The notes under the pieces are model-generated. The model saw nothing but the letters and a program-made list of their open reading frames with translations, did not search any database and was not told the origin of the DNA. A DNA stretch of 51,147 nt, taken from NCBI GenBank assembly GCA_036768735.1, contig DAIPML010000002.1:1-51147 (forward strand), in the 5' to 3' direction. This document shows, piece after piece, positions 149-51,133 of this stretch. Both the position numbers and the translations under genes were made by a program. Positions within the stretch are counted from its first letter, which is position 1, and every line of letters starts with the position of its first letter. This DNA is from Clostridiales bacterium. GTDB taxonomy: Bacteria; Bacillota; Clostridia; DSM-8532.

Positions 149-196
149 AATTACAAATCTCAATTTTCACACAGCTCATAAATTTTATAAAACTGC

Positions 197-225: not shown

Positions 226-352
226 ATATTTCGTTGCGATTACTTGGGTATAATTGATTACAAGTTAAGCGTAGCTTTTTAGGTTATTAGTAATGAGGGA
301 CCTCTGAGGTTTATCTTGGCGCTCATACAATTATGCCTGTCAAAACAGTGAA

Positions 353-460
353 CTCGTTCAGCTAAAGCTGAACATCGGGACTTCGGTGGGGGACTCTACC
401 CCCACCGAAGCAAGAATAAGGAACCCCCACTTATAGAAGTGGAGGTCTTGGAATTTTGAT
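353..460. repeat. Family G hairpin repeat, copy 2 (extended)
   Basis: It has the same 5' module as 84-128. It then forms a perfect 12-bp hairpin cttcggtggggg/cccccaccgaag (381-410), followed by gtggaggtcttggaattttgat. Confidence 0.7.
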
Positions 461-467
461 AAAATAA

Positions 468-541
468 TGCGGACTGGTGTAATGGTAGCACGAATGACTC
501 TGGCTCATTTTGTTAGGGTTCAAATCCTTAGTCCGCAGCCA
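468..541 (+). tRNA. tRNA-Gln (anticodon CUG)
   Basis: The cloverleaf was folded by hand. Acceptor TGCGGAC/GTCCGCA has a U1:A72 pair, discriminator G73 and encoded CCA. D stem is GTGT/GCAC. Anticodon stem AATGA/TCATT carries loop CTCTGGC, giving anticodon CTG. T arm is TAGGG-TTCAAAT-CCTTA. Confidence 0.9.
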
Positions 542-566
542 AAACCGGCTTTTTAGCCGGTTTTTT
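542..566 (+). terminator. Intrinsic terminator after tRNA-Gln
   Basis: Stem CCGGCT/AGCCGG with loop TTTT, followed by TTTTTT. Confidence 0.8.
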
Positions 567-602
567 GTTTTAATGTTTAGAGTGTTTGCATGGTTTCATG
601 CT

Positions 603-636
603 ATAAAAAAAACCCGGTTATCCGGGTTTTTTTTAT
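603..636. terminator. Bidirectional intrinsic terminator (serves ilvE on the minus strand)
   Basis: Perfect palindrome: an A-run, AACCCGG, loop ttat, CCGGGTT, then a T-run. It lies 14 nt beyond the ilvE stop. Confidence 0.8.
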
Positions 637-649
637 AGCAATAACAACC

Positions 650-1711
650 TTAAATTGTTTCAATCCAGTTAAATGTATCGGCAAGATTGCCATATTGAAT
701 TCCTGTCATCGTGTCGTAAAGACGTTGTGACACAGCTCCAATTTTGTTGTCATTCACAGTGATTGACCTGCCATTCCAGTTTAGTTCACCTACAGGGGAG
801 ATGACAGCTGCAGTTCCGGTACCAAAGATTTCCTTCAGTAAACCTTTTTCGTGAGCTTGATAAACCTCGTCGATTGTTATACGACGTTCGTTCATATTAT
901 AGCCCCAGGATTTTAAGAGTTCTATGGATGACTTTCTTGTAATGCCGGGAAGAATACTTCCGGTTAATTTCGGGGTTATAACTTCATCACCGATTATGAA
1001 GAACACGTTCATAGTGCCAACTTCTTCAATGTATTTCTTTTCAACACCGTCAAGCCATAGTACCTGAGTAAAGCCCTTTTTCTTCGCTTCCTCTTGCGCT
1101 TTAAGGCTTGCAGCATAATTAGCAGACGCTTTTGCTTCACCAAGACCACCCACAACAGCACGGACGTAATTAGCTTCAACATATATTTTAACCGGATTTA
1201 TGCCCTCTTTATAATATGCTCCTACGGGCCCTGTAATAATAACAAAGCTGTATGTGTCTGAAGGTCGGACACCAAGGTAAGGGTCGGTTGCAAAAACAAA
1301 AGGACGAATATATAAAGATGTGTCAGGTTCTTCCGGTACCCAATCCCTGTCAATGTCAACAAGCTTTCTTATAGCTTCCACACCCAAAGCTTCATCTATT
1401 GTGGGTATGCACAACCTTTGGCAAGAGGTATTAAGTCGACGAATATTCTCGAGAGGTCTAAACAGATTGACTTTTTTATCCGTTGTTTTATATGCTTTTA
1501 GACCTTCAAAAATGCTCTGCCCGTAATGAAAAGTCATAAGCGCAGGAGATATGGGAAGATTCTGATATGGAATTATGCGAGAGTTATGCCAACCCTTATC
1601 AGGTGCATAGTCGCAAACAAACATATGATCAGAAAAAGTAGATCCAAAGACAAGATGTTCGCTCGCTGGCTTTTGTTTGGGGTTTTTTGATTTTTCAACA
1701 GAAATTGTCAT
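650..1711 (-). CDS. ilvE: Branched-chain amino acid aminotransferase
   Basis: 353-aa ORF with fold-type IV aminotransferase motifs (FEGLKAYK, GGLGEAKASANYAASL, EVGTMNVFF, LPGITR). Confidence 0.92.
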   Translation of the reverse strand: MTISVEKSKNPKQKPASEHLVFGSTFSDHMFVCDYAPDKGWHNSRIIPYQNLPISPALMTFHYGQSIFEGLKAYKTTDKKVNLFRPLENIRRLNTSCQRLCIPTIDEALGVEAIRKLVDIDRDWVPEEPDTSLYIRPFVFATDPYLGVRPSDTYSFVIITGPVGAYYKEGINPVKIYVEANYVRAVVGGLGEAKASANYAASLKAQEEAKKKGFTQVLWLDGVEKKYIEEVGTMNVFFIIGDEVITPKLTGSILPGITRKSSIELLKSWGYNMNERRITIDEVYQAHEKGLLKEIFGTGTAAVISPVGELNWNGRSITVNDNKIGAVSQRLYDTMTGIQYGNLADTFNWIETI

Positions 1712-2718: not shown

Positions 2719-3603
2719 ATGCCGGAGCTAAATATTGACGGTAGAACCTCTTTGTATGCGCTAGCAGGGAAGTACATAGGTTTTTCGCCGATTCCGGGTT
2801 TTTTAAATACAATTATTAGCTTTATGGGTTATAATTCAATAATGATGCCATTTGATACTAATCATTACGATGTTCACATGGTTTTGGACGCTTTGCAAAT
2901 TTTAAACTGCAAAGGGATATATATAGACACGCCCCACAGGTGTGATCTGGACGGAATTTTAAGTACGCAGACTGAAGAAGCCCGCATTAGTGGTGCAGTT
3001 AACGTTGTTCGAACAGACGGAAGAGGATACTGTGGCAACAATACCGAAATAAAAGCATTTCAAAAAGCATTTCCTTTGATTTCCGGCGATGAGCTTGCCG
3101 GAAAAGAAATTTTTCTTATAGGATCTGGAGGTATAGCAAGATCAATCGCAGTTGCATGTGTATATGAATCATGCAAAAGGCTCACTATAATCAATCGTAC
3201 ACAGGAAAAATCAAAGCAATTGTGCGAAAGAATAAATGAACGCTTTGGAAATGTTTCAATGGCTGCTGATGTTAACGAATCTGAAACCATACATAGTTTT
3301 TATAATGCTGATATTATTATAAATGCCACATCTGTTGGTATGTTTCCGGATATAGACAAGCATTCATTACCTGAAAATTATAATTTCTTACCACATCATC
3401 TTGTATTTGATGTGATATACAGCCCTCCTCAGACGAAATTTATACAGCTTGCCGCTAATAAATGCTGCAGAGCGGTAAACGGTAAAGATATTATGTTTTA
3501 CAGTTGCATAGAAGCTTTCCAATGGTGGACAAATGTCAAAATTGACGAAGAAGCTGAAAATAAACTATTTCACCTTTGGAAAGAAATGATATATAATATA
3601 TGA
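2719..3603 (+). CDS. Shikimate dehydrogenase-family paralog with non-canonical active-site residues
   Basis: Rossmann motifs GSGGIARSI, NRTQEKSKQL, DIIINATSVGM and FDVIYSPPQT align to AroE. The canonical NVTxPxK is YIDTPHR and NTD is NTE. Start chosen at ATG 2719 (GGGGGA 7 nt upstream); the ORF opens at GTG 2704. Confidence 0.75.
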   Translation: MPELNIDGRTSLYALAGKYIGFSPIPGFLNTIISFMGYNSIMMPFDTNHYDVHMVLDALQILNCKGIYIDTPHRCDLDGILSTQTEEARISGAVNVVRTDGRGYCGNNTEIKAFQKAFPLISGDELAGKEIFLIGSGGIARSIAVACVYESCKRLTIINRTQEKSKQLCERINERFGNVSMAADVNESETIHSFYNADIIINATSVGMFPDIDKHSLPENYNFLPHHLVFDVIYSPPQTKFIQLAANKCCRAVNGKDIMFYSCIEAFQWWTNVKIDEEAENKLFHLWKEMIYNI

Positions 3604-3606
3604 CAA

Positions 3607-3629
3607 GAGGTGGGGTCCATCTAAGCCTC
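3607..3629 (+). repeat. Short palindromic module gaggtggggtccatctaagcctc
   Basis: The same module occurs at 14197-14218. Its reverse complement occurs at 37143-37164 and 50955-50977, at the 5' end of family A copies. Confidence 0.65.
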
Positions 3630-3656
3630 GTTATAAAACAGAGGGAGAGGTTTAAT

Positions 3657-6752: not shown

Positions 6753-6837
6753 TCCAAAGAATGAAACACCTGAGTGCAGGTGTGCACCCACTGGAGCACA
6801 CCACAAGCCTCGTGAGCCCGTGGACTTTAGCTGTTAA

Positions 6838-6927
6838 CCCCACCTCTTCGCATATTTTCAACCATTCTGGTTGAAAAATGCTTGGTGACGTGTATCTGTT
6901 TCTCACAACAGGTGGTGAGTCAAAATA
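6838..6927 (+). repeat. Family A repeat, copy A1
   Basis: ccccacctcttcgcatattttcaaccattctggttgaaaaatgcttggtg...acaacaggtggtgagtcaaaat is close to 50965-51057. It includes the hairpin tttcaacc/ggttgaaa. Confidence 0.85.
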
Positions 6928-8085: not shown

Positions 8086-8133
8086 AAGAGATCTACCATT
8101 CATGCGATAATACTACCCAAAACATTAAAAAAT

Positions 8134-8340
8134 TCAACTTTCCCACAGTGTATATAGGTTATCCTTATTGGAGGAGCGTTTTGGTAGGCTAGGGTAAATC
8201 TTTATTAGGAGAGCATTCCGGTTGGCTAAGGTAAATTCTTCTTAAGGGAGCGTTCAAGTAGGGATGCTCCTTTGGTACGCCCCTTAGATTTGGCGTATAC
8301 ATCAATAGCAGGAACCGATTGAAGTGTGATATCACACCTG
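8134..8340 (+). repeat. Family D repeat, copy D1, with three internal ~35-nt degenerate units
   Basis: It starts with caactttcccacagtg and ends with gaagtgtgatatcacacctg. Internal units at 8155-8258 resemble TAGGGTwAtCCTTmTTrGGrGAGCrTTyyGGT. It is the reverse complement of 18091-18292. Confidence 0.85.
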
Positions 8341-8385
8341 AAAAAATAGATATCAGCGTTACAAAACACAATAGAGAGCCGATTG

Positions 8386-8988
8386 TTAATCAAAAATCAA
8401 AACGACAATTCCCTGCAGTATGCCGATTAAAAAGCCTAGTACTGCTCCTAAATACTCAATATGCTTAAGCTCGTTTTTTACAACCCCTGTTACCATTGCT
8501 TCAAACGAAACTAAATCAAGAGCCTCAATTTTTTCAATAACCATCTCAGAAATTGAGAAATTTTGTGTTGCATTGGTTATAACATTTCCAATCATTTCAC
8601 GGATATATCTGTCACCGTCTTTATCCATGAATGAATCAAGCTGCTTTTTAATTGTTTTATCGGTAAATCCATGCAAAATTCCAGGCAGCTTATTCTTTAA
8701 AATTTTAACTACATTTTCAACGATAGAAACTTTTAGTTTAGCTATATCTTTATCATTAATAATGCTATTTAATATCTCATCTTTTGACAAAAGCTGTTTT
8801 TCAATAACATTACCAATAGAAACTGCAAGCTCAGATTTTCTCGCAGGCAGAACACCATGTATTTTATATCCAAACGGGAATTTAATTGGCTTTAAAGGCT
8901 TGAATAATAACTTAACTGCAATTAAATTTGTAATCCACCCGATAAAGCCACCAACCAGGGATAAAACAAACAATTCCAATAACTTCAT
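8386..8988 (-). CDS. DUF445-family membrane protein
   Basis: N- and C-terminal TM segments flank a soluble core (GWITNLIAVKLLFKP ... LGAVLGFLIGILQG). Start at ATG 8988 with GGAGGA upstream. Confidence 0.6.
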   Translation of the reverse strand: MKLLELFVLSLVGGFIGWITNLIAVKLLFKPLKPIKFPFGYKIHGVLPARKSELAVSIGNVIEKQLLSKDEILNSIINDKDIAKLKVSIVENVVKILKNKLPGILHGFTDKTIKKQLDSFMDKDGDRYIREMIGNVITNATQNFSISEMVIEKIEALDLVSFEAMVTGVVKNELKHIEYLGAVLGFLIGILQGIVVLIFD

Positions 8989-9128
8989 ATGAGTCCTCCG
9001 AATCAAGTACAAACCAAACATCTAAAAGCACAATGGCTTTTCAATTTAATAGTATAACACAGAGAGTATAGCACAATAAGATTAAAACACCATTAAAATT
9101 GTTACTGTTGTTTTGCAGGCTGTTATCA

Positions 9129-9213: not shown

Positions 9214-10629
9214 TTGGTCTTCTCAAGTCTAATATTTTTATATCTCTTTTTTCCTTTAAGCTTATTGTTCTATTTTCTGTCAAAAAATCTTACATACCGG
9301 AATATAGTATTGATTGTTTTTTCTTTGGCTTTTTACGCTTGGGGAGAGCCGGTCTGGATTATCTTGCTTATCTTAAGTGCCAGCATAGATTTTTTTCACA
9401 GCCTGCTTATTAAAAAGTATCGCAGTACGTGGGTTCCGAAAGCAGCATTGATTTCATCCATTATTCTAAACCTTTCACTACTTGTTTTTTTCAAATATTC
9501 AGCTTTTCTTGTTCAGAACATAAATCTGATTTTCGGAATAAATATCCCATTCAGCGAGTTCAGCCTGCCTATCGGAATATCATTTTACACTTTTCAAACC
9601 ATGTCTTATACCATTGATGTCTACCGTGGCGACACAAAAGCACAGCAATCTTATTTCAAATTCCTGTTGTATGTTTCACTCTTTCATCAGTTGGTGGCAG
9701 GACCTATTGTACGCTACAGTGATATAGCTAATGAAATTGAGTGTCGTAGTATAAATATTTCTGAAGTTTACAGCGGAATTAACCGTTTTGTCATTGGGCT
9801 GGGTAAAAAGGTGCTTATAGCCAATACCGCAGGAGAACTGGCCGAACCTTTATTGAATGGGAACCTTCAGCATCTTACAACCACCGGAGCGTGGCTCGGG
9901 ATCCTCACTTTTACAATACAAATATATTTTGATTTTTCTGGGTACTCCGATATGGCTATTGGAATGGGGAAAATGGTAGGATTCCATTACAAAGAGAATT
10001 TCAACTACCCATATATGGCATCATCGGTAACAGATTTCTGGAGGAGATGGCATATCTCTCTTGGCAGCTTCTTCCGAGACTATTTATACATTCCTTTAGG
10101 TGGAAATAGGAGCCATTATATAAGAAACATTATAGTTGTTTGGTTTTTAACCGGGCTTTGGCATGGTGCAAGCTGGAATTTTGTTGTATGGGGCTTGTTT
10201 TACGGGTTTTTTATTATATTAGAGAAAAAGTTTCTCTTGGAGTTTTTTAAAAAGCTGCCTGCATTCGTTTCGCACATTTATCTTCTGTTTCTTGTTGTCA
10301 TAGGGTGGGTTTTCTTTCAATTCACTAACCTTGAAACCGGATTCAATTACTTAGGGATAATGTTCGGAATTGGAGGAAACGGCTTTTTTAGTGTAGAAGA
10401 CGGTATTTTAATGTCGGGAAATTTGTTGTTTCTAATTATCGCTGCTGTAGGCTGTACACCTATGATATCCAATCTAAGGATGAGGCTTATGGAGCGTATT
10501 AAAGAATGGAAATACAGTGACTGGGTACCTGCTTTATGGCATCCAGCTATAAATATTTTATTACTGATTTTATGCACTGCATTTTTAATAGGAAAATCCT
10601 ATAACCCGTTTTTATACTTCAGGTTTTAG
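9214..10629 (+). CDS. MBOAT-family O-acyltransferase (AlgI/DltB-like)
   Basis: 471 aa, polytopic, with the N-terminus MVFSS typical of AlgI-like proteins. MBOAT His motifs WRRWHISL and GLWHGASW are present. TTG start follows GGGGGTG. Confidence 0.88.
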   Translation: MVFSSLIFLYLFFPLSLLFYFLSKNLTYRNIVLIVFSLAFYAWGEPVWIILLILSASIDFFHSLLIKKYRSTWVPKAALISSIILNLSLLVFFKYSAFLVQNINLIFGINIPFSEFSLPIGISFYTFQTMSYTIDVYRGDTKAQQSYFKFLLYVSLFHQLVAGPIVRYSDIANEIECRSINISEVYSGINRFVIGLGKKVLIANTAGELAEPLLNGNLQHLTTTGAWLGILTFTIQIYFDFSGYSDMAIGMGKMVGFHYKENFNYPYMASSVTDFWRRWHISLGSFFRDYLYIPLGGNRSHYIRNIIVVWFLTGLWHGASWNFVVWGLFYGFFIILEKKFLLEFFKKLPAFVSHIYLLFLVVIGWVFFQFTNLETGFNYLGIMFGIGGNGFFSVEDGILMSGNLLFLIIAAVGCTPMISNLRMRLMERIKEWKYSDWVPALWHPAINILLLILCTAFLIGKSYNPFLYFRF

Positions 10630-10641: not shown

Positions 10642-12363
10642 ATGAATAAGAAGTGTTTAAATATTATTTGTTTTTTTGCATGTGTGTTCAGTATCGGGAT
10701 ATTGAATTTATTTACAGAAAACAGAAATATTTCAGACTATGAAAATCGTACACTGGAGCAGTTTCCAGAATTCACTTCTCAAGGTCTTTTTTCGGGTGAT
10801 TATTCTTCTGGTATTGAGATGTGGTTTGCTGACCAGTTTCTCTTAAGGGATACATTTGTTCAAATCAGCAGTACGATGAAGGAATATAAGGGGCTGCCCG
10901 GAAACAGCGGGGCTCAGATTATTTTCCAGGATGGCTTTAATGCGTTTGAACAGCAGGTAGCTGTTGTGTTCGATGAAGCACAAGTACCGTATGAATTATC
11001 GACTCAGAACTCCACGCAGATTCCATCCGCCGAAAGCCAAACTATCGTGCCCACGAATGTACCAATAACGCAAGACTCAACTCAGACGGGAGTAAATTTG
11101 GGTGTGCAAAAGGATACTCTCCCTTTATCTGAAAGAGTGAAGACTGAAGATATGCAAAATGACAGTTTGTTAAATGAAAGCTTGACAAATGGAAGCTTGG
11201 CAAATGAGAGTTCGCCAAATAGAAGTTTGGAAAATGAAGGTTTATTAAATGAAGGCTTATCAGAACGTTCACCAAATGAAGGTTTGTTAAATGATGGCTT
11301 ACTAAAAAGTTCGTCAAATGAAAGTTTGTTAAATGATAGTTCGTCAAATGAAGGTTTGTCAGAAATCTCACAAATTGAAGGTTTACTAAACAATAATATA
11401 ACAAATGAGAGTTTACCGGCTTTAAAACCAACACCGTCTGAAGCTGCATCAACAACGGAGAAAGCGCCGGAAAGAGATGACAACGGAAGAACCATCGGTA
11501 AAATCCTGATTTACAAAAATAGTGCTATGGCTTTATTCCCGTTTTATGCCGGCCCCACAGCACATTATGCAAATACTTTGAATGACTTCAAAGAAAAGGC
11601 GGGAGTAGAGATTCAAACTTACTCATTGCTAGCACCGACCAATACCGAGTTTATTGATAACTCAAAATATAAGAGTCTGTCCGATTCTCAAAAAGAAGCT
11701 ATTGCATATGTGAACGCAAGACTTAAGGGTATCATTCCTGTAGACGCATATACCTCAATTAGTGAACACAAGGATGAATACATTTATTTCAGAACAGATC
11801 ATCATTGGACTGCGTTAGGAGCCTATTATGCCTATACCGGCTTTGCTGAGGCAGCTGGCTTCGAAGCTGTGCCCTTGGATACCTTTGAAACCGAGAACAT
11901 TGAAAACTACTTAGGTTCGATGTATGATATGACATCCAGCTCTACACTTAGGAAACACCCGGATATTATAACCGTATACAAGCCAAATGTGAAAAACGAA
12001 TATAACGTTTACTACGAAAGCCCAATAAAAATGAAAGTTATTGATATGTCACATGCGGATAAGAAAATTAAATACAGGGTATTCATCAGTGGCGACAGAC
12101 CTTTAGGCATTATTAAAACTGAAGTGAAAAACGGGAAAAAGCTCTTAGTTATCAAGGATTCATACGGCAATGCTATGGTACCATTCCTCCTTCCACATTA
12201 TCAGGAAATATTCGTTATTGACCCTCGACAATATAATAAAAATGTGTTTACGCTAATAAAAGAAAACGGTATTCAAGAGGTGCTTTTCCTAAATTATGTT
12301 TCCATACTTTCTGAATACGGTTTTTCCGATTTGATTGTTAAGATGATGGAAGCCGATAATTAA
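10642..12363 (+). CDS. DHHW-family protein (AlgX/AlgJ-like SGNH partner of the MBOAT)
   Basis: 573 aa with an N-terminal TM anchor and a C-terminal domain carrying FRTDHHWT. It lies 12 nt downstream of the MBOAT gene. A long low-complexity linker is present. Confidence 0.8.
   Translation: MNKKCLNIICFFACVFSIGILNLFTENRNISDYENRTLEQFPEFTSQGLFSGDYSSGIEMWFADQFLLRDTFVQISSTMKEYKGLPGNSGAQIIFQDGFNAFEQQVAVVFDEAQVPYELSTQNSTQIPSAESQTIVPTNVPITQDSTQTGVNLGVQKDTLPLSERVKTEDMQNDSLLNESLTNGSLANESSPNRSLENEGLLNEGLSERSPNEGLLNDGLLKSSSNESLLNDSSSNEGLSEISQIEGLLNNNITNESLPALKPTPSEAASTTEKAPERDDNGRTIGKILIYKNSAMALFPFYAGPTAHYANTLNDFKEKAGVEIQTYSLLAPTNTEFIDNSKYKSLSDSQKEAIAYVNARLKGIIPVDAYTSISEHKDEYIYFRTDHHWTALGAYYAYTGFAEAAGFEAVPLDTFETENIENYLGSMYDMTSSSTLRKHPDIITVYKPNVKNEYNVYYESPIKMKVIDMSHADKKIKYRVFISGDRPLGIIKTEVKNGKKLLVIKDSYGNAMVPFLLPHYQEIFVIDPRQYNKNVFTLIKENGIQEVLFLNYVSILSEYGFSDLIVKMMEADN
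11158..11418 (+). repeat. In-frame degenerate 15-nt (pentapeptide) tandem repeat within the DHHW gene
   Basis: About 18 units of the type N-E-[SG]-L-[LS]: NDSLL NESLT NGSLA NESSP NRSLE NEGLL NEGLS ... NESLP. Both large antisense ORFs here (11042-11495) are artefacts of this repeat. Confidence 0.9.
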
Positions 12364-12995: not shown

Positions 12996-13026
12996 CCAGA
13001 GAAAGTCGCTTTGTGACTTTCTGGGA
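12996..13026. repeat. Family B core hairpin
   Basis: ccagagaaagtcgctttgtgactttctggg is the palindromic core shared with 1804-1830, 38885-38963, 47012-47036 and 47148-47175. Confidence 0.8.
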
Positions 13027-13145
13027 GATAACCTTATTATTAATTCAACATTAATGCGGGTTTTTTAACCATTGACAGAAAAGATATAATAGAAGTATAG
13101 AGAAAACGGGCAAGCTAATCGGTTTTAAAATAAAAGGAAGTGTCT

Positions 13146-16639: not shown

Positions 16640-16870
16640 TTTGGATTTAACAAACGCCTTAGAACCCCTGCCTCTGTGCGTACTTTAAGTCTTTTGGGAT
16701 TAAAATCTTTTGCCAGGGGCAAACCAAATTTTGCTTCAGCCGGGGTTCGTTTAGAATAAGGAGCATCTTTATGTGTCCATGAGGGGCTTTCTTTGAAAAA
16801 GAATGAGTGAGAAAATGAAGTATTTGAAAGTACAATAAGTATCTGAAAATATATTGAGGGGGAATTTATC

Positions 16871-17878: not shown

Positions 17879-18090
17879 GAATTGAGAAGTATCCTTCTAA
17901 GCAAGAAAAGGGAATGTACCCTTGAAATCCTTTGTTGTGGATGGTTTCTGCAGATATACTATACTGCGAGCAAAGGGATATCTCTCTTTAATTGCTTTGG
18001 AAAGTATATTTCACTATACATTAGGGTGAACACATTTCATGCATAAAACGCCAATGTAAGGCTTTCACCATGGATGCAATATATTTTAGT

Positions 18091-18292
18091 GCGAGTAGTG
18101 TTTTGAGGTGCTGGTACCGACATGCTGAGGTGTGGTATCGCCTCGCCGTCGGTACCAGCTATGCAGACAAGCGCCCAATACAGGTGCGTACCTAAGGAGC
18201 GTACCAACCGGAACGCTCCCCCAAGAAGGATAACCCTAATCACTGGAACGCACCCCCAAGAAGGGTAGCCCTAAAGTACTGTGGGAAAGTTG
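18091..18292 (-). repeat. Family D repeat, copy D2 (two internal units)
   Basis: The reverse complement starts with caactttcccacagtac, 2 nt after the lipid-kinase stop. It contains the perfect 12-bp inverted repeat gctggtaccgac (18110-18121) / gtcggtaccagc (18148-18159). Confidence 0.85.
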
Positions 18293-18294
18293 GG

Positions 18295-19191
18295 TTAATC
18301 AATTTTATTAACAAACAGTTTTACAGCAGGGTGTATACACTTAACATGTATTGGAAGCAGGGTGCCCGATTCGCCATCTACACATATTTGAACCTGTTTT
18401 TCGGATTGAATTCTGCACTCTTTAGCGCGGATATGGATCATTCGACTGTCGCTGGACAATTCTTTTGACATTATTTTAATGAGTAGATTCAAAAGCTCTT
18501 TTGGCTTTGAATTTTTAAAAAGCAGGATATCAATGAGCCCATCTTCGATGTCGGCTTCCTTGAAAAAATCAGAGAAACCGGCAACGTTTCTTCCGTTAAT
18601 AACAAGAAACAGAATAACATCTTCATTAATGCGACAGTTTTCTGTTTCAACAGACAGGTTAAAAGTTTCAACCTTGGGCAAGGCATCGAAGGCTTTAAGA
18701 TAATAGGCAACAATACCGATGCTTTTTTTTAACTCGTTTCCCGTATGTATGGAGACATTGGAAAACAAACCTCCGCAGAGATTGCCCAGAAAGTAATGAT
18801 GATCATTTATTAAACCTGCATCAATTTCTTTTATTTTGCCTGACATAATTACATTTATCCAGTCGTCTATGTTGTTTGTCATTCCGATGCTGCGGGCAAA
18901 ATCATTGCAGGTACCACCGGGGAAAATACCTATTGGAATTGTTATACCGTTTTTAATATAGAAATTAACCATGTAATTCACGCTACCGTCACCACCTGAA
19001 ACAATAGAAAAGGAATAAGAATCTGAATGGAAAATTTCCTTAAGCGACGATGTACAATCATCATTTTGAAATAATCTGAAAGGAACAAGTAAAACTCCGG
19101 CCTCTTGAAATTTCTCAAACAAATAATCGAGGTTGTTTTTTATGCTGTGGTCCCCAGATTTAGGATTATAAATAAAAAGCCCTTTTTGCAT
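18295..19191 (-). CDS. Diacylglycerol kinase-family lipid kinase (DagK/YegS-like)
   Basis: 298 aa with DAGK catalytic-domain motifs NPKSG, VSGGDGSVN and GTCNDFARSIG. Confidence 0.85.
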   Translation of the reverse strand: MQKGLFIYNPKSGDHSIKNNLDYLFEKFQEAGVLLVPFRLFQNDDCTSSLKEIFHSDSYSFSIVSGGDGSVNYMVNFYIKNGITIPIGIFPGGTCNDFARSIGMTNNIDDWINVIMSGKIKEIDAGLINDHHYFLGNLCGGLFSNVSIHTGNELKKSIGIVAYYLKAFDALPKVETFNLSVETENCRINEDVILFLVINGRNVAGFSDFFKEADIEDGLIDILLFKNSKPKELLNLLIKIMSKELSSDSRMIHIRAKECRIQSEKQVQICVDGESGTLLPIHVKCIHPAVKLFVNKID

Positions 19192-19241: not shown

Positions 19242-19330
19242 CCCCGCCCAAACTCTTTGCATACTTTCGACAATTAGGGTTGAAAAACGTCTGGCGGTGG
19301 TACCGTTTACCAAAATCAGACGGCGAGCTT
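19242..19330 (+). repeat. Family A repeat, diverged copy A5
   Basis: ccccgcccaaactctttgcatactttcgacaattagggttgaaaaacgtctggcggtgg...cagacggcgagc is collinear with 46840-46910 and 50970-51057. Confidence 0.6.
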
Positions 19331-24221: not shown

Positions 24222-24305
24222 CCCCGGTTGCATGGGCGAGCAGCAAACAAAGTTTGCGACCAGCCCCGGTTGCATGGGCGAGCAGCAAACGAAGTTTGCG
24301 ACCAG
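24222..24305 (+). repeat. 42-bp direct tandem repeat x2 (family C module)
   Basis: ccccggttgcatgggcgagcagcaaacAaagtttgcgaccag occurs at 24222-24263 and again at 24264-24305 with one mismatch. It is related to 51072-51107. An inverted family A core (atacgcgaagaggtgtgg) lies at 24329-24347. Confidence 0.9.
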
Positions 24306-24479
24306 CCATTTCAACGGGGCGGGGGAAAGATACGCGAAGAGGTGTGGAATATGACATATTTTGGGCCAGTAAAGTGAAATCACATATTGAACAAGAAACT
24401 GAACATAAACATATATATATAAGTGAACTGATGCTCGATCCAATTCACGTATATATAGCGGATTTTCGGAGGGAAGTAA

Positions 24480-25841
24480 ATGAAGGTTTGTAAATTTGGA
24501 GGTACATCATTAGCTTCGGCAGATCAGATTAAAAAGGTTTGCGACATAGTTACATCTGATCCTGAACGGAGATTAGTGGTTGTTTCAGCACCGGGGAAAG
24601 AATTTGATGACGATATTAAAGTAACCGACCTTTTGATAAATTTGGCGGAAGCCTATTTAAAAACTCAAAATTGTGATAAAGAGCTTAATCAGGTCGTTTC
24701 GAGATATCAAAGAATCGCTGAAGGGCTTAATTTAGGTGATGGAATTGTCAAAGATATTGAAAACAATTTAAAGACAAGAATTTCACTGGGTTATGACCAT
24801 AAAGAAAAATTTATCGACAGAATGAAAGCTGCTGGTGAGGATAATAGTGCGCGCCTGGTAGCAAAGTATTTAAGGAGTCTGGGTTACAATGCAAAATATA
24901 TTAATCCTAAGGATGCCGGACTATATTTAAGTGATGAATATGGTAATGCTCGTATATTGCCTCAATCCTTTAAAAATCTTTCAAAACTCAGAGATATGGA
25001 TGGAATATTAATTTTCCCTGGGTTTTTTGGTTATTCATTGTCAGGCGAAGTAGTAACATTCTCAAGAGGTGGCTCTGATATTACCGGTTCCATACTTGCA
25101 GCTGCGATTGAGGCTGATATTTACGAAAACTTTACCGACGTCAACTCTGTTTATGCTGCAAATCCGAAATTAATAAAAAATCCCAAGGCTATTTCGGTTT
25201 TAACATACCGTGAAATGAGAGAGCTTGCGTATGCGGGTTTTTCTGTGCTTCATGAAGAAACCCTTGCTCCGGTTTTCAGAAAAGGGATACCTGTAAACAT
25301 CAGAAATACCAACAATCCTGAATCCAAAGGAACAATAATAGCCACAACGAGAAAAATTACCAATGGTCCAGTATCAGGCATCGCCGGTACAGGTGGCTTT
25401 TTAACAATTAATATTCATAAATATTTGATGAACAGAGAAATTGGTTTTGTTAGAAAGGTTCTTTCAATACTTGAAGAAGAATCTGTTTCGTTTGAGCATG
25501 TTCCTTCCGGTATTGATGATATCTCTATTATTCTGCGCAAAAAGCATATTGATGATGACAAGGTTTCCCGTATAATGGAACGTATTGCACATAACCTGGT
25601 TGTTGACAGTATTACAATTGGCTATGACCTTGCCCTTGTTATGGTTGTAGGTGAAGGCATGATGAACAGCATTGGAGTTGCAGGCAGAGCAACCACAGCT
25701 CTCGCAAAGGGTGGAGTAAATATAAGAATGATTAATCAGGGCTCGTCTGAAGTGAGTATAATGTTCGGAATTGATGAAAAGGATCTGGATGCTGCAATAA
25801 TTGCATTATATGATGAGTTTTTTGACGAAAACAATGAATGA
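24480..25841 (+). CDS. lysC: Aspartate kinase (monofunctional, about 450-aa class)
   Basis: N-terminus MKVCKFGGTSLASA, a kinase core and two C-terminal ACT-like regions. GGAGGG lies upstream. Confidence 0.9.
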   Translation: MKVCKFGGTSLASADQIKKVCDIVTSDPERRLVVVSAPGKEFDDDIKVTDLLINLAEAYLKTQNCDKELNQVVSRYQRIAEGLNLGDGIVKDIENNLKTRISLGYDHKEKFIDRMKAAGEDNSARLVAKYLRSLGYNAKYINPKDAGLYLSDEYGNARILPQSFKNLSKLRDMDGILIFPGFFGYSLSGEVVTFSRGGSDITGSILAAAIEADIYENFTDVNSVYAANPKLIKNPKAISVLTYREMRELAYAGFSVLHEETLAPVFRKGIPVNIRNTNNPESKGTIIATTRKITNGPVSGIAGTGGFLTINIHKYLMNREIGFVRKVLSILEEESVSFEHVPSGIDDISIILRKKHIDDDKVSRIMERIAHNLVVDSITIGYDLALVMVVGEGMMNSIGVAGRATTALAKGGVNIRMINQGSSEVSIMFGIDEKDLDAAIIALYDEFFDENNE

Positions 25842-25843
25842 CG

Positions 25844-25932
25844 CAACTTTCCCGTCACGGCTTGCGAGTGATATTTTTTGAGCACTGATAACGACATTCA
25901 GAGGTGTGATATCACGCCGTCAGTAGCTAAAA
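25844..25932 (+). repeat. Family D repeat, short copy D3
   Basis: It starts with caactttcccgtcac 3 nt after the lysC stop and contains cagaggtgtgatatcacgccgtc. Confidence 0.75.
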
Positions 25933-33191: not shown

Positions 33192-33278
33192 GTGGCTTGC
33201 GATGCTGGACATATCAGAACAAAAACAACCATTGAAGCAGTGATATGTCCACCTAAGTTATGTCCACCTAAGTTATGT
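33192..33278 (+). repeat. Family D-like fragment plus a 15-nt tandem repeat in the pheA-aroE spacer
   Basis: gtggcttgcgatgctggacatatca...cattgaagcagtgatatgtccacc parallels D3 (ggcttgcgagtgatat...cattcagaggtgtgatatcacgcc). A 10-bp inverted repeat ggacatatca/tgatatgtcc lies at 33207-33216 and 33241-33250. atgtccacctaagtt occurs twice at 33245-33274. Confidence 0.7.
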
Positions 33279-33404
33279 ACTACTAGTTTAGTTTCCAAAG
33301 CCGCTTAATCTCACAATTTTATTTAATCGACCACAGAATAACCACTGTATTTTACCAATCAATGAAGTTGTTTATTGAATTTTGACTTACGAAAGGAGTC
33401 TCGT

Positions 33405-34397
33405 ATGAAGTATGGTTTAATAGGTGAAAAGCTCAGTCATAGTCTATCTCCTGACATTCATAGGATTTTCTTCGAACTGACAGGAAAAAAAGGTGATTAC
33501 GGGCTTTTTGAGCTTTCAATAGAGGAACTTCAGCCTTTTCTTTTGAATGCTTCTGATAAAGGCTTTAAAGGCTTGAATGTGACGATTCCATATAAAAAAA
33601 AGGTTATTTCGTATATCAATGAATTATCCAAAGAAGCAATGAAAATTGGTGCGGTGAATACAATTGTGCCTGGGAACATGTTGAAAGGCTATAATACCGA
33701 TTATTATGGAATAGATTATACTCTAAGAAAATATCATGAAAGCTTTTATTGGGACAGAGCTCTTGTATTGGGTAGTGGCGGGGCAGCAAATGCAGTTATC
33801 ACTTATCTTGAAGACAATAAAGACAATGAATTCAATGAAGAAGGTATAGACAATGCAGACAAAAAAGACAACATAGATTATAAAAAAAATAAAGACAATA
33901 AAGAAAATAAAGACAATGCAAACAAAAATGAAGACTATGAAAGAAATGAAAGCAACAAATACAATGAAACCAATGGAATCAATGAAATTAATAAAAGAAG
34001 CAGTGTTGTAAGCAAAATCTATCTGGCAAGCAGAGATAAAATAGCTGCAAAAAATAAATTTCCACATGCTAATACGGTTTCATATGATGAAATAGCTGAT
34101 TATTCACCATTTGACATAATAGTAAACACTACACCGGTGGGAATGTTTCCATCGGTAGGAGCTTCTCCATTAACAAAAGAGCAAATTAATGGCTCCGGCT
34201 TTTTGTTTGACTTAATTTATAACCCTGCTAAAACAAGGCTGATGGAGCTTTCAGATGAATTAGGCATACCTAATGTAAATGGGCTGTATATGCTGGTAGC
34301 CCAAGCTGTAAAAGCACAGGAAATATGGAATGGAGAAGAGTATGGGCAGGATTTGGTAGATGCTGTATACTTGAGGTTCTTGGGGGAACGAGCTTAA
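33405..34397 (+). CDS. aroE: Shikimate dehydrogenase (canonical catalytic motifs) carrying a ~65-aa low-complexity insertion
   Basis: SHSLSP, NVTIPYKK, GYNTDYYG, GSGGAANA and NTTPVGM are present. AAAGGAG lies upstream of ATG 33405. An N/K/D/E-rich insert is encoded at about 33811-34005. Confidence 0.9.
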   Translation: MKYGLIGEKLSHSLSPDIHRIFFELTGKKGDYGLFELSIEELQPFLLNASDKGFKGLNVTIPYKKKVISYINELSKEAMKIGAVNTIVPGNMLKGYNTDYYGIDYTLRKYHESFYWDRALVLGSGGAANAVITYLEDNKDNEFNEEGIDNADKKDNIDYKKNKDNKENKDNANKNEDYERNESNKYNETNGINEINKRSSVVSKIYLASRDKIAAKNKFPHANTVSYDEIADYSPFDIIVNTTPVGMFPSVGASPLTKEQINGSGFLFDLIYNPAKTRLMELSDELGIPNVNGLYMLVAQAVKAQEIWNGEEYGQDLVDAVYLRFLGERA

Positions 34398-37113: not shown

Positions 37114-37452
37114 TTCACACCCTCTATATTCTGAGATATAGCGAGGCTCAGATGTCCCCACCTCTTCGCGTATTTTCAACCATTATGGCTATTGAAGGAC
37201 GTTCTTTTGCTTTGCAAAAAACGGATCAAGCAATTTCTTCCGTTATTTTAACCGTGCAATCACAATATGGTTATCTCTCAGAAAGTCACATAGTGATTAT
37301 TTGATGCAATTTAAGATATTTTAAATTTCATCTGCTTTCAAAAGAAGGCTGGAAAATTATATTGAGATTACACTTGGTTGTAGCTTGACACGACTTCCTG
37401 CGGATTGACCAGCAAGAAAAATACGTTTCACGATTTTAAGGTAGAAATCATA
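37114..37452 (+). repeat. Mosaic array: family E module, family A copy A3, and family B composite copy
   Basis: ttcacaccctctatatt lies at 37114-37130. gaggctcagatgtccccacctcttcgcgtattttcaacc begins at 37143. The span 37266-37452 is collinear with 46995-47185. Confidence 0.85.
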
Positions 37453-37623
37453 ATAATAAATTAAAATGAATTATTTAAAATTTTAACTTGCAATATTATA
37501 TGAAAAGTATTAATATAAAAAAAAGAATTATCAGCCACTCATATATGCACATTCTTTTTTTCAATAGTTGCATGAAAAATGAGAATAATAGGCTGTATAA
37601 GATTACTGGGGGAAATAATTAAC

Positions 37624-38884: not shown

Positions 38885-38963
38885 CCTGAAAGCCACGAAG
38901 TGACTTCTAATGATTATCGAATCGTCTTTAATAACGACTAAAGTTACTTCATGACTTTCTGGG
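38885..38963. repeat. Family B core hairpins (two half-elements)
   Basis: cctgaaagccacgaagtgacttct lies at 38885-38908 and agttacttcatgactttctggg at 38942-38963. Confidence 0.7.
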
Positions 38964-39135
38964 AGATAATCAGATAACAACAATAAAAAACTCACATCGT
39001 TAAAAATAGTAAATTATATCTGGATTTTTAGAGAGAAAGAATATATAATAGATATGTCATGCAACAGATTTGAACATTATGTAAGAACTTCATGTCGTCT
39101 TAACAATGACAACATAAACTTGGAGGAAAAAAATC

Positions 39136-40335: not shown

Positions 40336-40366
40336 GAGAAAAGCGTTGAGAAAAGCGTTGAGAAAA
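40336..40366 (+). repeat. 12-nt tandem repeat gagaaaagcgtt (about 2.6 copies)
   Basis: Read directly from the sequence: gagaaaagcgtt gagaaaagcgtt gagaaaa. Confidence 0.85.
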
Positions 40367-40376
40367 CTTGGAATAT

Positions 40377-40432
40377 ATACATACATACATACATACATAC
40401 ATACATACATACATACATACATACATACATAC
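40377..40432 (+). repeat. Tetranucleotide microsatellite (ATAC)14
   Basis: 14 perfect ATAC units were counted from the sequence. The run lies between the convergent 3' ends of the GntR gene and the coat-protein gene. Confidence 0.95.
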
Positions 40433-40511
40433 AAATAGAAAAAGCCTGGAGAAAACTCCGGGCTTTAAATGTGTGGCAAATGAGTGCTTCAATTCAAAAA
40501 TGCTTTATTTT

Positions 40512-44232: not shown

Positions 44233-44436
44233 AGACACGCAATTGATTAGTAATTACTTCTCATTTACCTAACTTTATTGTAGTATTATGAACACTTGCC
44301 TGCATAGCAGGCTATTGACAACTTTAGGATATTACGCCTCAACATGTCGATTCCATAAGAGTTGTCTTTAAATAGTAACTCATTAGAAAATCACTTCGTG
44401 TATTTATGTAAGATAATCATAGCATTTCTTCGAAAT

Positions 44437-45671: not shown

Positions 45672-45840
45672 CGCTATAAGAAAAGTTACACACTATAAGA
45701 AAAGTCACACACTCATTTTTTTATGTGTTTTTCTGAAAAAGCGTTAAAAAATGATGTTAGTCAGAGCTTAGCCATTTTTTAAAAAAGAAGCATGTAAAAA
45801 TGCATGTAATTATTATAAAATCATGGAAAGGATGATTTTA

Positions 45841-46680
45841 ATGCTTAATAAAAAAATTAAAATCTGGGATGATGTAAAAACAGACAAGGCTTACAATGAC
45901 GATTTTGATCCTATTCTTGAAACATACATCTTGTCAGGTAATAAAAAAAGAGCTGCTGTTTTGATTTGTCCCGGCGGAGGATACGCTTATACCTCAGAGA
46001 GGGAAGCGGAACCCATTGCAATGCAGTTCAATGCAAATGGATACCATGCATTTGTTTTGAATTACAGTGTTGCGCCAAGGCGGCATCCCCAACCAATTTT
46101 GGATTGCTCTCGTGCTATGTGCCTGATTCGCAGTAACGCCGAAGAATGGAATATCGATAGCTTTAAAATAGCCGTTTGTGGTTTTTCTGCAGGTGCTCAC
46201 CTTGCAGCAAGTCTTGGTGTCCATTGGAACAAACCTTTACTTGATGTTAGTGGAATACATATCGGAATGAATAAACCGGATGCTTTAATATTGGCTTATC
46301 CTGTGATTTCAATGAAAAATTATTGCCATATTGGTTCAAGAGAAAACTTATTGGGAAAAAACCCGGAGATAAATCTTGTAGAGGAAATGTCTCTTGAAAC
46401 ACAGGTTTCAAGAAACACACCACCGTCTTTTATATGGCATACGGTTGAAGATGTAGCGGTTCCAGTTGAAAACAGCCTTATGTTTGCTAGCGCGTTGCGA
46501 AAAGAAAAAATCCCTTTCGAACTACATGTTTACACTAAAGGACCGCATGGTTTATCACTTGCCACTGAAGAAACGGATGTTGCAAAAAACGGCTCATTTC
46601 CTCATATAGCCGGATGGGTAAAGCTTAGCATTGAATGGCTGGAGGAGATTTTTACACCACAATCTTTTTTTAGTCTATAA
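45841..46680 (+). CDS. Alpha/beta hydrolase (esterase, BD-FAE/arylesterase-like)
   Basis: Oxyanion region CPGGGYAY, nucleophile elbow GFSAGAHLA and a C-terminal His region GPHGLSL. Confidence 0.8.
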   Translation: MLNKKIKIWDDVKTDKAYNDDFDPILETYILSGNKKRAAVLICPGGGYAYTSEREAEPIAMQFNANGYHAFVLNYSVAPRRHPQPILDCSRAMCLIRSNAEEWNIDSFKIAVCGFSAGAHLAASLGVHWNKPLLDVSGIHIGMNKPDALILAYPVISMKNYCHIGSRENLLGKNPEINLVEEMSLETQVSRNTPPSFIWHTVEDVAVPVENSLMFASALRKEKIPFELHVYTKGPHGLSLATEETDVAKNGSFPHIAGWVKLSIEWLEEIFTPQSFFSL

Positions 46681-46814
46681 CTCAACTTTCCCATTTTAAC
46701 TTGCGACTAGTGTTTTGAGGCGCTGGTGCCGACATGCTGAGGTGGGATATCACATCGCCGTCGGTAGCCTGCTGTGCAGGCAAGCGCCCTAAAACACTGT
46801 GAGAAAGTTGAGTT
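46681..46814 (+). repeat. Family D repeat, compact copy D4 with terminal inverted repeats
   Basis: It begins ctcaactttccca 1 nt after the esterase stop and ends ctgtgagaaagttgag. The two arms (agtgttttgaggcgctggtgccgac / gtcggtagcc...gcgccctaaaacact) form a long imperfect hairpin. Confidence 0.88.
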
Positions 46815-46820
46815 AATAGT

Positions 46821-46910
46821 GAGGCAACAAGATGTACCTCATATCTTCGCGTATTTTCAACAATTAGAGTTAAAAAACGTCTGGTTGCGGGTATGTGGTG
46901 GAATCAAAAT
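46821..46910 (+). repeat. Family A repeat, diverged copy A4
   Basis: gaggcaacaagatgtacctcatatcttcgcgtattttcaacaattagagttaaaaaacgtctggttgcgg... Confidence 0.7.
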
Positions 46911-46994
46911 TTAATAATAATTAAACTCCGAGAGTGATTTCTAATTAAACTTTAATGAATGGCTAACGCTTTTTTCATAGTAACAGTCTATAAT

Positions 46995-47185
46995 TATATT
47001 ATGGTTACCATCCAGAAAGTCACAAAGTGGCTTTCTAATGAAATCTAAGATATCTTTAATTTAATAGCCTTCGAATGAAGGCTGGATAACCATAATGTGA
47101 TTGCACTAGGTTGCAACAAGCTGCAACTTCCTGCTGGTAAATCTGCAGGAAAAAGTCGTTTCACGACTTTCTGGGAAGTAATCAT
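46995..47185 (+). repeat. Family B composite repeat (about 190 nt), reference copy
   Basis: Left hairpin ccagaaagtcacaaagtggctttct, central ggataaccataatgtgattgcactaggttgcaac, right hairpin ggaaaaagtcgtttcacgactttctggg. It is collinear with 37266-37452 and with the reverse complement of 28399-28568. Confidence 0.88.
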
Positions 47186-47238
47186 GTTGTAGTTAAATCT
47201 AGCAAATTATGTGATTGCTCTGAAGGAGGATGAAATAT

Positions 47239-47778
47239 ATGAGTCGGAATACAAGTGGTAAATTTGGGTGGGGTGCTATTTTAGTAACAATCGGATTATT
47301 GCTCTTTCTTTCAAACCTTGGCATAGTACCAAGCATTTGGCAGTTAATGGGTAAATTTTGGCCTATGATTATTATTTTTGCATCATTACTATTCCATGTA
47401 GGTTATTATTCAAACACAAAAAATGTTGGACTTTTAGTGCCGGGTGGGATTTTGCTTACTGTGGGAATTGTATGTCAATGCTCCATGCTTTGGGGTTTGT
47501 GGGGATTTATGTGGCCAGGTTTTATACTTGCCCCAGCGGTTGGCCTTTTTGAATTATATATATTTGGAAAGCAAGATAAGGGTTTACTAATACCGGTAGG
47601 TATTTTAACAGGAATGTCGCTTATATTCTTTTCAATGTCATTTAGAGCCCTTGGAAGTTTTGCAAAATACTTAGTTCCTGTTTCACTTATAGTTATAGGA
47701 CTTGTCATTCTTGCTAAAAATAAGAGAGAGTCAAATGATAAAGACGACCCGAATGATTTCAACAACAACGGTTTTTAG
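47239..47778 (+). CDS. Integral membrane protein, function unknown (LiaF/DUF5668-like N-terminal TM pattern)
   Basis: About 5 TM helices and a charged C-terminal tail. ATG 47239 is preferred because GGAGG directly abuts ATG 47230. Confidence 0.65.
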   Translation: MSRNTSGKFGWGAILVTIGLLLFLSNLGIVPSIWQLMGKFWPMIIIFASLLFHVGYYSNTKNVGLLVPGGILLTVGIVCQCSMLWGLWGFMWPGFILAPAVGLFELYIFGKQDKGLLIPVGILTGMSLIFFSMSFRALGSFAKYLVPVSLIVIGLVILAKNKRESNDKDDPNDFNNNGF

Positions 47779-50954: not shown

Positions 50955-51133
50955 GAGGCTAAGATGTCCCCCACCTCTTCGCATATTTTCAACCAGAATG
51001 GTTGAAAAATGCCTGGTGGCGGGTACATATTTCACACAACAGGCGGCGAGTCAAAATCTCCCGCATAGGATGCATAGGCGAGCAGCAGGCTCTGCCTGCG
51101 ACCAGCCTCGTTGAAATGGTGTGTTGAAAATAT
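50955..51133 (+). repeat. Family A copy A2 followed by a family C module (runs towards the window end)
   Basis: gaggctaagatgtcccccacctcttcgcatattttcaaccagaatggttgaaaaatgcctggtggcg starts 2 nt after the trmD stop. gcataggcgagcagcaggctctgcctgcgaccagcc (about 51072-51107) parallels the 42-bp unit at 24222. Confidence 0.85.

Follow-up and report, generated by a model that had tools for sequence, protein, structure and literature searches.

The 51,147-nt NCBI contig analyzed here at its full length (hereafter, the window), which belongs to the metagenome-assembled genome (MAG) of an uncultured Ruminiclostridium-like bacterium, was found to carry five copies of an intergenic hairpin element designated family D. 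Very likely, family D is a real MITE (miniature inverted-repeat transposable element) family, apparently undescribed, that is new in sequence and known in type. This assignment was drawn from the combination of inverted ends, target-site duplications, and empty orthologous sites, together with the lack of coding capacity, of any Rfam match, and of a nearby transposase. A near-identical strain carries the label Ruminiclostridium sp., and the window sequence also recurs in several fermentation metagenomes. No MITE family seems to have been described for this clostridial lineage, namely the relatives of Ruminiclostridium and Thermoclostridium from fermentation reactors.

Anatomy and insertion sites of family D

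An nhmmer profile built from three full-length copies, D4 of the window and two from other genomes, matched the window at 46680–46813 (D4; E = 3e-45), 25842–25927 (D3; 2e-11), and 44271–44355 (D5; 2e-10), and retrieved D2 as the segments 18086–18182 and 18268–18294 (6e-25) and D1 as 8286–8379 (4e-6). A second, broader profile returned the same five copies with E-values from 1e-16 to 1e-41, and no sixth copy. The terminal 15-mer ACTCAACTTTCCCAC occurred eight times in the window at three mismatches or fewer against 1.3 occurrences expected, a count reached in none of 100 shuffles. The preliminary description of this DNA had listed four copies and one fragment. The four copies proved to be real and mutually related, and their boundaries were revised to those in Table 1 (approximately in the case of D2), whereas the fragment following pheA (33192–33252) was no better than chance: it had only the 9-mer GGCTTGCGA in common with the family, gave no profile match at E ≤ 10, and produced an alignment score within the shuffle range. 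The fifth copy, D5, had been overlooked. As a separate observation, the 15-mer TATGTCCACCTAAGT is tandemly duplicated at 33243–33272, just downstream of pheA.

Outside the window, 185,579 species-representative genomes and a set of metagenome contigs were each scanned once with a 20–22-nt core pattern, which yielded few loci (referred to by L numbers). Two uncultured Oscillospiraceae MAGs and some fermentation metagenomes were thereby found to have copies; two metagenome loci, L011 and L014, were discarded as chance pattern matches inside G+C-rich coding sequence. In addition, a 21-kb flagellar region from the same samples as the window, reached via homologues of the FliI protein beside one metagenomic copy, contained six further insertions, all of them gene-oriented (Table 1).

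Alignment of the complete copies gave a unit of ~133 bp, the core measuring 133–134 bp and the long variants 215–250 bp. The ends are 14–16-bp inverted repeats, ACTCAACTTTCCCAC...GTGGGAAAGTTGAGT, whose pairing is perfect in L008; in D4, the terminal inverted repeats noted previously were verified, with 12 of 13 positions matching. Beside the left end, ~14 nt (CACCTCAGCTTGCGAG) are unpaired, which renders the element asymmetric and its orientation readable; the left end was named end B and the right end A, the two being told apart by this asymmetric interior. Further inside lie a second stem, GTGTTTTGAGGCGC/GCGCCCTAAAACAC, and then two inner hairpins, one of which is centred on the palindrome GGTGTGATATCACACC. 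Either strand of D4 was predicted to fold as a long Y-shaped hairpin, with a free energy of -60.9 kcal/mol (z = -5.5 relative to shuffles) for the RNA and -60.5 kcal/mol (z = -7.0) for the opposite strand. No coding capacity was found, and the copies lie outside open reading frames (ORFs) of at least 100 aa except for the terminal base that D4, D3, and D2 share with a stop codon.

The long variant, represented by D1 and D2, contains an array of 35–37-nt units just inside end A, which form nested hairpins. As described previously, three such units in D1 and two in D2 were recognized by a unit hidden Markov model (HMM), and D2 contains a perfect 12-bp inverted repeat, GCTGGTACCGAC/GTCGGTACCAGC. 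Units are missing from D4, L007, L008, a, and N1, and copy b, situated elsewhere in the same genome, has one unit plus three tandem 13-nt half-units. These differing unit counts bore out the earlier view of a modular, length-variable element, and the variable numbers of units and half-units imply that the array behaves like a minisatellite. The motif GGAACGCACCACAAGCCTCG(ACCCG) was observed in the window (6780–6812), in the element-bearing L012 (6620–6650), and in a sister species without family D (L018, ~9027–9049; L019, ~9895–9917); as it shares CTGGAACGCACC with the internal units, the latter may derive from a separate small repeat.

Complete copies are flanked by 5-bp direct repeats, TATTT in L008/L009 and TAAGG in L010/L013, and duplications matching at four of five bases were seen for N1 in L033 (TACTA/TGCTA) and for L012 (TAAGT/TTAGT). 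Two perfect pentamers among five complete copies would arise by chance with a probability of ~2e-5; over seven complete copies, the 5-bp duplications were perfect in two, matched at four of five bases in two, and were poor in three. The first two bases are TA in every clear duplication, and the flanking DNA is AT-rich. A 7-bp duplication would result if the element's terminal A and T were assigned to the target.

Syntenic loci were fetched from sister species with 79–88% protein identity for the comparison of insertion sites. Seven orthologous spacers, corresponding to eight of the ten insertion sites of this species (all except those of D1 and D5), were empty in the sister species at every site examined, i.e., after the genes for the esterase and the lipid kinase and after lysC, scpB, fliI, the MgtE_N-like gene, and flbD. 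The copy in the D4 spacer was absent from the orthologous site in five loci from three sister lineages. At the lysC site (D3), a canonical terminator is present instead, and the convergent spacer after the lipid-kinase gene (D2) measures 105–159 nt in sister species, with a bidirectional terminator and no copy. A profile search of the fetched sister-species loci likewise found no family D copy anywhere.

As the preliminary description had proposed, Rfam was also consulted. The tRNA alone was found in the whole window at the gathering threshold, and E-value mode over 46600–47250 gave noise only (E > 5), so that family D had no covariance-model match. By blastn, D4 matched nothing in the plasmid or phage collections, and viral contigs, scanned twice with patterns, gave nothing either. 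Pfam searches and gene tables agreed with the earlier statement that no transposase is present within the window. Of the transposases seen elsewhere (IS66 family in L013; DDE_Tnp_1 in L015, L031, and L038), each had other ends or occurred in species without the element, and the transposase gene ends inspected in L015 had no match to the ends of family D.

These features also bear on two other types of dispersed element. An extragenic palindrome of the REP/BIME type, spread by a RAYT transposase, would likewise be intergenic, palindromic, present in many copies, and located at gene 3' ends. REPs are, however, 20–40 nt long with a conserved GTAG or CGTC head, and they make no target duplication (PMC3733652), whereas family D measures 133–250 bp, has other ends, and makes duplications; an origin of this type is hardly credible. 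Accordingly, of the previous label "MITE/REP-like", the first half was retained, given the terminal inverted repeats, 5-bp duplications, empty orthologous sites, decayed or one-ended copies, and lack of coding capacity, and the second half was given up.

Integron attC sites carry the consensus RYYYAAC / GTTRRRY. The outermost 7 nt of family D fit this consensus exactly (ACTCAAC = RYYYAAC; GTTGAGT = GTTRRRY), its 134 bp fall within the attC length range, and its position directly past stop codons would suit attC-like sites, or remnants of cassettes, that an integron integrase had put behind genes. Nevertheless, inverted ends make one match force the other, so that the coincidence, noticed post hoc, amounts to ~1 in 1000. 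The terminal stem is one continuous 14–16-bp helix with no unpaired central spacer or extrahelical bases, the insertions carry 5-bp duplications, and no integrase lies within the window. The neighbors, moreover, are core genes (lysC, uvrC, fliI, and scpB) that are syntenic in element-free species and hence are not cassettes. Given the unbroken terminal helix, the target duplications, and the synteny of the neighboring core genes, membership in attC was ruled out on the tested features, and an integron origin retains next to no plausibility.

Copies beyond the window and their decay

Within this species, 11 copies were counted in ~92 kb (five in the window plus its 20 kb flanks and six in the 21-kb flagellar region), a density that reflects sampling biased to regions holding copies. 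Young copies stand beside older relics in three places: N1 beside a solo end B, L007 beside a solo end A, and copy a beside copy c. Old copies decay by substitution and one-sided deletion, D3, D5, and c having lost half of the hairpin; D3 is identical in three other assemblies. The rule that one-ended copies always retain the gene-proximal end was considered and dropped, since c and N2 are without the proximal end and copy b in one strain (L013) is interrupted by an IS66-family element. This element (1–944, minus strand) encodes a TnpB_IS66 Orf2 (E = 7e-34) preceded by a TnpA-like ORF, and is absent from copy b in five other strains.

Two loci were treated with caution. At 2247–2547 of L003, the left 106 nt of D4, with two single-nucleotide polymorphisms, are joined to a long variant that has three or more units and is followed by a 46-nt repeat, in place of the short D4 end. 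Either the unit array is polymorphic at the D4 locus or the assembly is chimeric here, and the structure was left out of the analysis. The contigs L004 and L006 break at exactly the point of divergence between D4 and L003, inside the element. A 400-nt block of L008 (2116–2515), comprising the element and the 3' end of a GerM-like gene, is 100% identical to L009, and the flanks are 83–92% identical. As both are MAGs listed as different species and obtained from one co-assembly, the block may stem from recent recombination or from a co-assembly/binning artefact, and it was not read as conservation.

Two side observations concern these loci. The 46-nt repeat GTTAATAAGGAACCCCCACTTATAGAAGTGGAGGTCTTGGAATTTTGAT lies at 415–460 of the window, just upstream of tRNA-Gln, where it is preceded by a strong hairpin, CTTCGGTGGGGGACTCTACCCCCACCGAAG, at 381–410; it recurs at other places of the genome with 100% identity, in L022 (20374–20419 and 20858–20890) and at the end of L003. 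The fliF-fliG spacer of the flagellar region varies between strains, with 92 nt in one and 211–270 nt in others (L033, 7994–8087; L034, 2124–2395; L035, 2135–2347; L036, 2102–2323). No family D match was found in these four spacers, and another insertion or repeat is probably polymorphic there.

Table 1. Family D copies, their parts, and other dispersed repeats; coordinates refer to the window unless the flagellar region is named
Feature	Position	Strand or orientation	Description
D4	46680–46813	+	Complete short copy, 134 bp, both terminal inverted repeats; nhmmer model positions 1–133, E = 3e-45
D4 left terminal inverted repeat (end B)	46680–46694	+	ACTCAACTTTCCCAT; 1 mismatch to consensus (alignment)
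D4 right terminal inverted repeat (end A)	46799–46813	-	ACTCAACTTTCTCAC on minus strand; pairs with left repeat in fold
D3	25841–25928	+	Old copy; end B and model positions 1–90 kept, right half gone; E = 2e-18 (broader profile)
D2	18081–18295	+	Long variant; end A at 18281–18295, left repeat absent or unrecognizable; E = 7e-28 (broader profile)
D2 internal sub-repeat units (two, ~35 nt each)	18204–18238, 18242–18273	-	Nested hairpins (fold); unit HMM E = 7e-8, 2e-6
D1	8132–8380	-	Old long variant; end A at 8132–8146, end B degenerate; E = 1e-16 (broader profile)
D1 internal sub-repeat units (three)	8157–8189, 8192–8226, 8229–8262	+	Unit HMM E = 5e-6, 1e-6, 1e-6
D5	44267–44356	-	Degenerate; model positions 44–134; inverted relative to co-directional flanking genes; E = 6e-19 (broader profile)
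pheA "fragment"	33192–33252		Not a member of family D
N1	Flagellar region	Gene orientation	Complete; 10 nt past scpB stop
Solo end B	Flagellar region	Gene orientation	Relic of older copy, directly after N1
c	Flagellar region	Gene orientation	Fragment; 4 nt past fliI stop
a	Flagellar region	Gene orientation	Complete; adjoins c, upstream of fliJ
b	Flagellar region	Gene orientation	Complete long variant; 9 nt past stop of the MgtE_N-like gene that follows fliJ
N2	Flagellar region	Gene orientation	Degenerate; starts at flbD stop
Second repeat family, fuller copies	6838–6926, 46837–46925, 50969–51057		One lies directly downstream of D4
Second repeat family, partial copies; inverted copies	16666–16719, 19247–19300, 37156–37209; 3595–3641, 24309–24352	Last two inverted	
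Third repeat family	1775–1850, 47120–47195, 37387–37462, 12998–13040, 38936–38978; 46991–47041, 37248–37296, 13006–13054	Last three inverted	

Placement at stop codons, orientation and possible function

Family D copies had been described as lying just after stop codons, and the contact turned out to be tighter than claimed, the stops of the esterase, lysC, and lipid-kinase genes being shared with the terminal A of the element. With the start of the repeat taken as this terminal A, the first base of D4 completes the esterase stop (TA + A) and that of D3 the lysC stop (TG + A), and end A of D2 supplies the last base of the stop codon of the lipid-kinase gene on the minus strand (TA + A). Four copies (D4, D3, D2, and N2) lie at 0 nt from the upstream inward-reading stop, and the distance is 3 nt in L007, 4 nt in copy c, 9 nt in copy b, 10 nt in N1, 22 nt in L008, and 34 nt in D5, which follows an ABC-ATPase gene. 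End A of D1 lies 46 nt past the DUF1893 stop, and its end B lies within 0–6 nt of the converging DUF445 stop (8386–8388). When the available space was taken as the spacer lengths at the empty sister-species sites (15–283 nt) and relative positions were combined by Fisher's method, crowding against the upstream stop was significant (p = 3e-6), also without D4, D3, and D2, which had first drawn attention to the pattern (p = 0.004). The gene-end placement rule is not absolute: L012 has divergent genes on either side and stands 28 nt upstream of a start codon.

At both junctions where the element completes the stop of a plus-strand gene, the encoded protein differs from its relatives. The esterase (45823–46680) and LysC (24480–25841) are longer than their closest element-free relatives, the esterase ending in ...EEIFTPQSFFSL versus ...EIFAV or ...EIFKR and LysC in ...EFFDENNE versus ...EFFK. 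Since the junction with the element is exactly where both ORFs end, the C-terminal tails were reshaped by the insertion or by what followed it.

Between co-directional genes, nine of ten copies are in gene orientation (p = 0.02), as are all seven outside the window (p = 0.016), five of the independent copies belonging to one operon. The preliminary description, in which every copy had the same orientation relative to the upstream gene, was not upheld. Judged from the interior, D3 and D4 have end B facing the adjoining gene, whereas the lipid-kinase gene is faced by end A of D2 and the DUF1893 gene by end A of D1; D2 and D5 are inverted versus D3 and D4, and the inverted informative copies are D2, D5, and L008. 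The sequence CAACTTTCCC always stands at the gene-proximal end because both inverted ends carry it. Non-random placement and orientation were thus supported by loci outside the window (p = 0.004; 7/7), whereas the evidence originally offered was an artefact of the inverted ends.

Ten of 12 copies also agree with the presumed leading strand, an orientation inseparable from that of the genes. Together with the extensive hairpin potential, this agreement would suit the remains of a single-strand, strand-specific IS200/IS605-type transposon (a PATE-like element mobilized by a Y1 HUH transposase), with one orientation relative to replication. Such elements have neither terminal inverted repeats nor target duplications, in contrast to the 14–16-bp repeats and 5-bp duplications of family D, and no tnpA or tnpB was seen nearby; this origin is accordingly very improbable.

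If family D is a MITE family as we favor, a transposase encoded elsewhere in the genome would bind the ACTCAACTTTCCCAC repeats and cut with a 5-bp stagger at TA-rich pentamers, and the copies would be co-transcribed with the upstream gene as 3'-untranslated or intercistronic RNA. Two causes could underlie the crowding at stop codons. One would be the preference for TA-rich pentamers: the element starts with A and ends with T, and a TAA or TGA stop would be rebuilt if the target ends with TA or TG, as with a target ending in TA to which the terminal A is added, and with a target that starts with TA, a gene running in from the opposite side would regain a TAA. With the stop codon rebuilt, an insertion at the stop would be silent for the protein. 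The other would be purifying selection, the few bases past the stop being the only harmless site in tight spacers such as operon junctions, which measure 15–55 nt in sister species. The mostly gene-parallel orientation may reflect selection against the other orientation or a replication-linked transposition bias. D4, D3, N1, and b, however, stand at the very start of ancestral spacers of 118–283 nt, which is not obviously explained by selection alone, and real targeting of gene ends thus deserves to be kept in mind as a minor possibility.

The placement at the upstream stop codon, the gene orientation of nine of ten copies in co-directional contexts, and the very stable fold could alternatively mark a host-selected RNA element for gene 3' ends, either a terminator or an exonuclease-protecting 3' hairpin, which would have spread by its function and not by selfish transposition. 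Precedents are ERIC, REP/BIME, and SPRITE, which act, or are proposed to act, on mRNA 3' ends (in part, PMC2229807 and PMC3049150). In the window, lysC and the esterase gene are without a recognizable intrinsic terminator, and in sister species such a terminator follows lysC and another separates the Band7 and lipid-kinase genes. The lack of a canonical terminator after lysC or the esterase gene fits co-transcription through the element or a hairpin serving as the 3' structure, and proves neither. On the other hand, a G+C-rich stem with a U-tract after it was seen in none of the copies, no terminator-like site occurs inside D2, D3, or D4, and the flagellar operon, in which termination would do damage, holds copies at the fliI-fliJ junction and between flbD and the gene after it; the terminator role put forward previously is therefore unlikely. 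Furthermore, both orientations occur (D2, D5, and L008), L012 precedes a start codon, and covariation did not exceed the controls: across six copies, which are few and too similar, 91.5% of cells were paired and two double-sided changes were found, not above shuffles. Old copies such as D3, D5, and c decay freely, and their loss of half the hairpin argues against strong selection on the structure. Overall, spread as a host-selected RNA element seems rather doubtful.

Some observations weigh against family D being a MITE family. Three of the seven complete copies have poor target duplications (D4, CTATA/TAATA; L007; copy b). The comparison of strains suggested in the preliminary description uncovered no presence/absence polymorphism within the species, all sampled strains having the same copies. 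No autonomous element with the same terminal repeats was encountered in the search for ACTCAACTTTCCCAC over ~183 kb of the ~400 kb fetched. The stop-codon placement (p = 3e-6) and the orientation (9/10) exceed what is expected of a neutral parasite unless targeting or selection is added, and the two compensatory changes, which preserve stem pairing, may hint at selection on the structure, although they did not rise above the shuffle control. We assign a small probability to a stronger reading, in which either the transposition machinery recognizes gene ends (the first TA-rich pentamer at or just after the stop, in the gene direction) or many transcripts have come to use the hairpin as their 3'-end structure. 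In the case of such recruitment, the hairpin would have taken the place of intrinsic terminators, those retained in sister species downstream of lysC and between Band7 and the lipid-kinase gene; in either case, family D would be a MITE inherently tied to the termination of translation or transcription.

Related elements, neighboring repeats and significance

Among described elements, pneumococcal BOX, ERIC, and bcr1 are closest in style to family D, which differs from these and from BrickBuilt in sequence, duplication length, or unit type. BOX (boxA-boxB(n)-boxC) of Streptococcus pneumoniae, which was compared by architecture only, shares with family D a low-G+C Gram-positive host, two mutually pairing end modules with a variable number of self-folding sub-repeats and hence variable length, and copies that cluster with other repeat families, nest side by side, and encode no transposase (PMC3049150). 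The sub-repeats of family D differ in being 35–37 nt long (with 13-nt half-units) and placed near one end, and most young copies are without any. In addition, the bias of BOX in orientation and position is weak, with ~61% of copies on the leading strand and a peak 50–150 bp from genes (PMC3049150), whereas family D copies abut stop codons. The BrickBuilt MITE of Porphyromonas gingivalis similarly contains an internal variable-number minisatellite between a "leader" and a "tail" and has small inverted ends; it differs in its 23-nt unit, in its promoter activity, in its host, which belongs to Bacteroidota, and in its copies, which are always 49–591 nt from coding sequences (PMC4596501).

With ERIC, family D has in common the size of a MITE, inverted ends, the hairpin, and stop-codon elements found preferentially in one orientation. 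De Gregorio et al. reportedly observed in 2005 that ERIC elements overlapping or adjoining stop codons occur preferentially in one orientation and that they affect the upstream mRNA in an orientation-dependent way. The target duplication of ERIC is the dinucleotide TA, in contrast to the 5 bp of family D; ERIC also has no internal sub-repeat array and resides in another host phylum. More generally, ERIC/IRU of enterobacteria, especially Yersinia, is a ~127-bp MITE with long terminal inverted repeats that forms an RNA hairpin and is co-transcribed with flanking genes (PMC2229807). The Correia elements of Neisseria (CREE/NEMIS) are also MITEs of 100–155 bp with inverted ends and short and long variants, and their transcribed hairpins affect mRNA fate, a point in which family D is likened to them by its predicted hairpin; they differ in their TA duplication, IHF site, outward promoters, and RNase III processing (PMC2229807).

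The bcr1-bcr3 elements of the Bacillus cereus group are MITE-like, ~155 bp long, bordered by the 5-nt AT-rich motif TTTAT, present in tens to >100 copies per genome, and often located in untranslated regions or intercistronic mRNA (PMC6542083; PMC3446304). They resemble family D in the Firmicute host and the 5-nt AT-rich borders. Their sequence and ends are different, however, and the target of family D is not a fixed pentamer (TAAGG, TATTT, TACTA, and others). We know of no report associating bcr1 with stop codons.

Other repeats were observed around the family D copies. A second dispersed intergenic family (CCCCACCTCTTCGCATATTTTCAACC...GGTTGAAAAATGC...) reaches up to ~89 nt with 62–87% identity between copies, and a third is built around the hairpin AAAGTCGTTTCACGACTTTCTGGGA (Table 1). 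The spacer between the esterase and liaF genes (46681–47229, 549 nt) is a pile-up of at least three repeat families including D4. In the same spacer, upstream of the liaF-like gene, the block ATTTCTAATTAAACTTTAATGAATGGCTAACGCTTTTTTCATAGTA (~46938–46985) is kept nearly base for base in three sister lineages in which the surrounding spacer is otherwise unrelated; it is probably a promoter or operator. A 42-nt sequence, CCCCGGTTGCATGGGCGAGCAGCAAAC.AAGTTTGCGACCAG, forms a tandem pair at 24222–24305 and has a third, 71% identical copy at 51064–51105, and an intergenic (ACAT)n microsatellite of ~70 nt lies at 40365–40441. Periodic repeats within ORFs were seen with a period of 9 nt (33812–33949, ORF 33375–34397) and of 15 nt (11133–11372, ORF 10642–12363); the encoded protein segments would be repetitive and of low complexity.

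Bacterial MITEs are poorly catalogued beyond a few pathogens. Family D is dense, with about one copy per 8–9 kb in the regions seen, and it fragments metagenome assemblies, as in the contigs L004 and L006, which end inside the element. It also changes gene ends, with stops rebuilt at the junction and C-terminal tails that differ from those of sister species. To our knowledge, ERIC is so far the only well-studied case of such hairpin effects on mRNA, and family D could show whether such hairpins alter mRNA fate in Firmicutes. It further offers a natural system for asking whether the distribution of MITEs in compact genomes arises from target choice or from selection.

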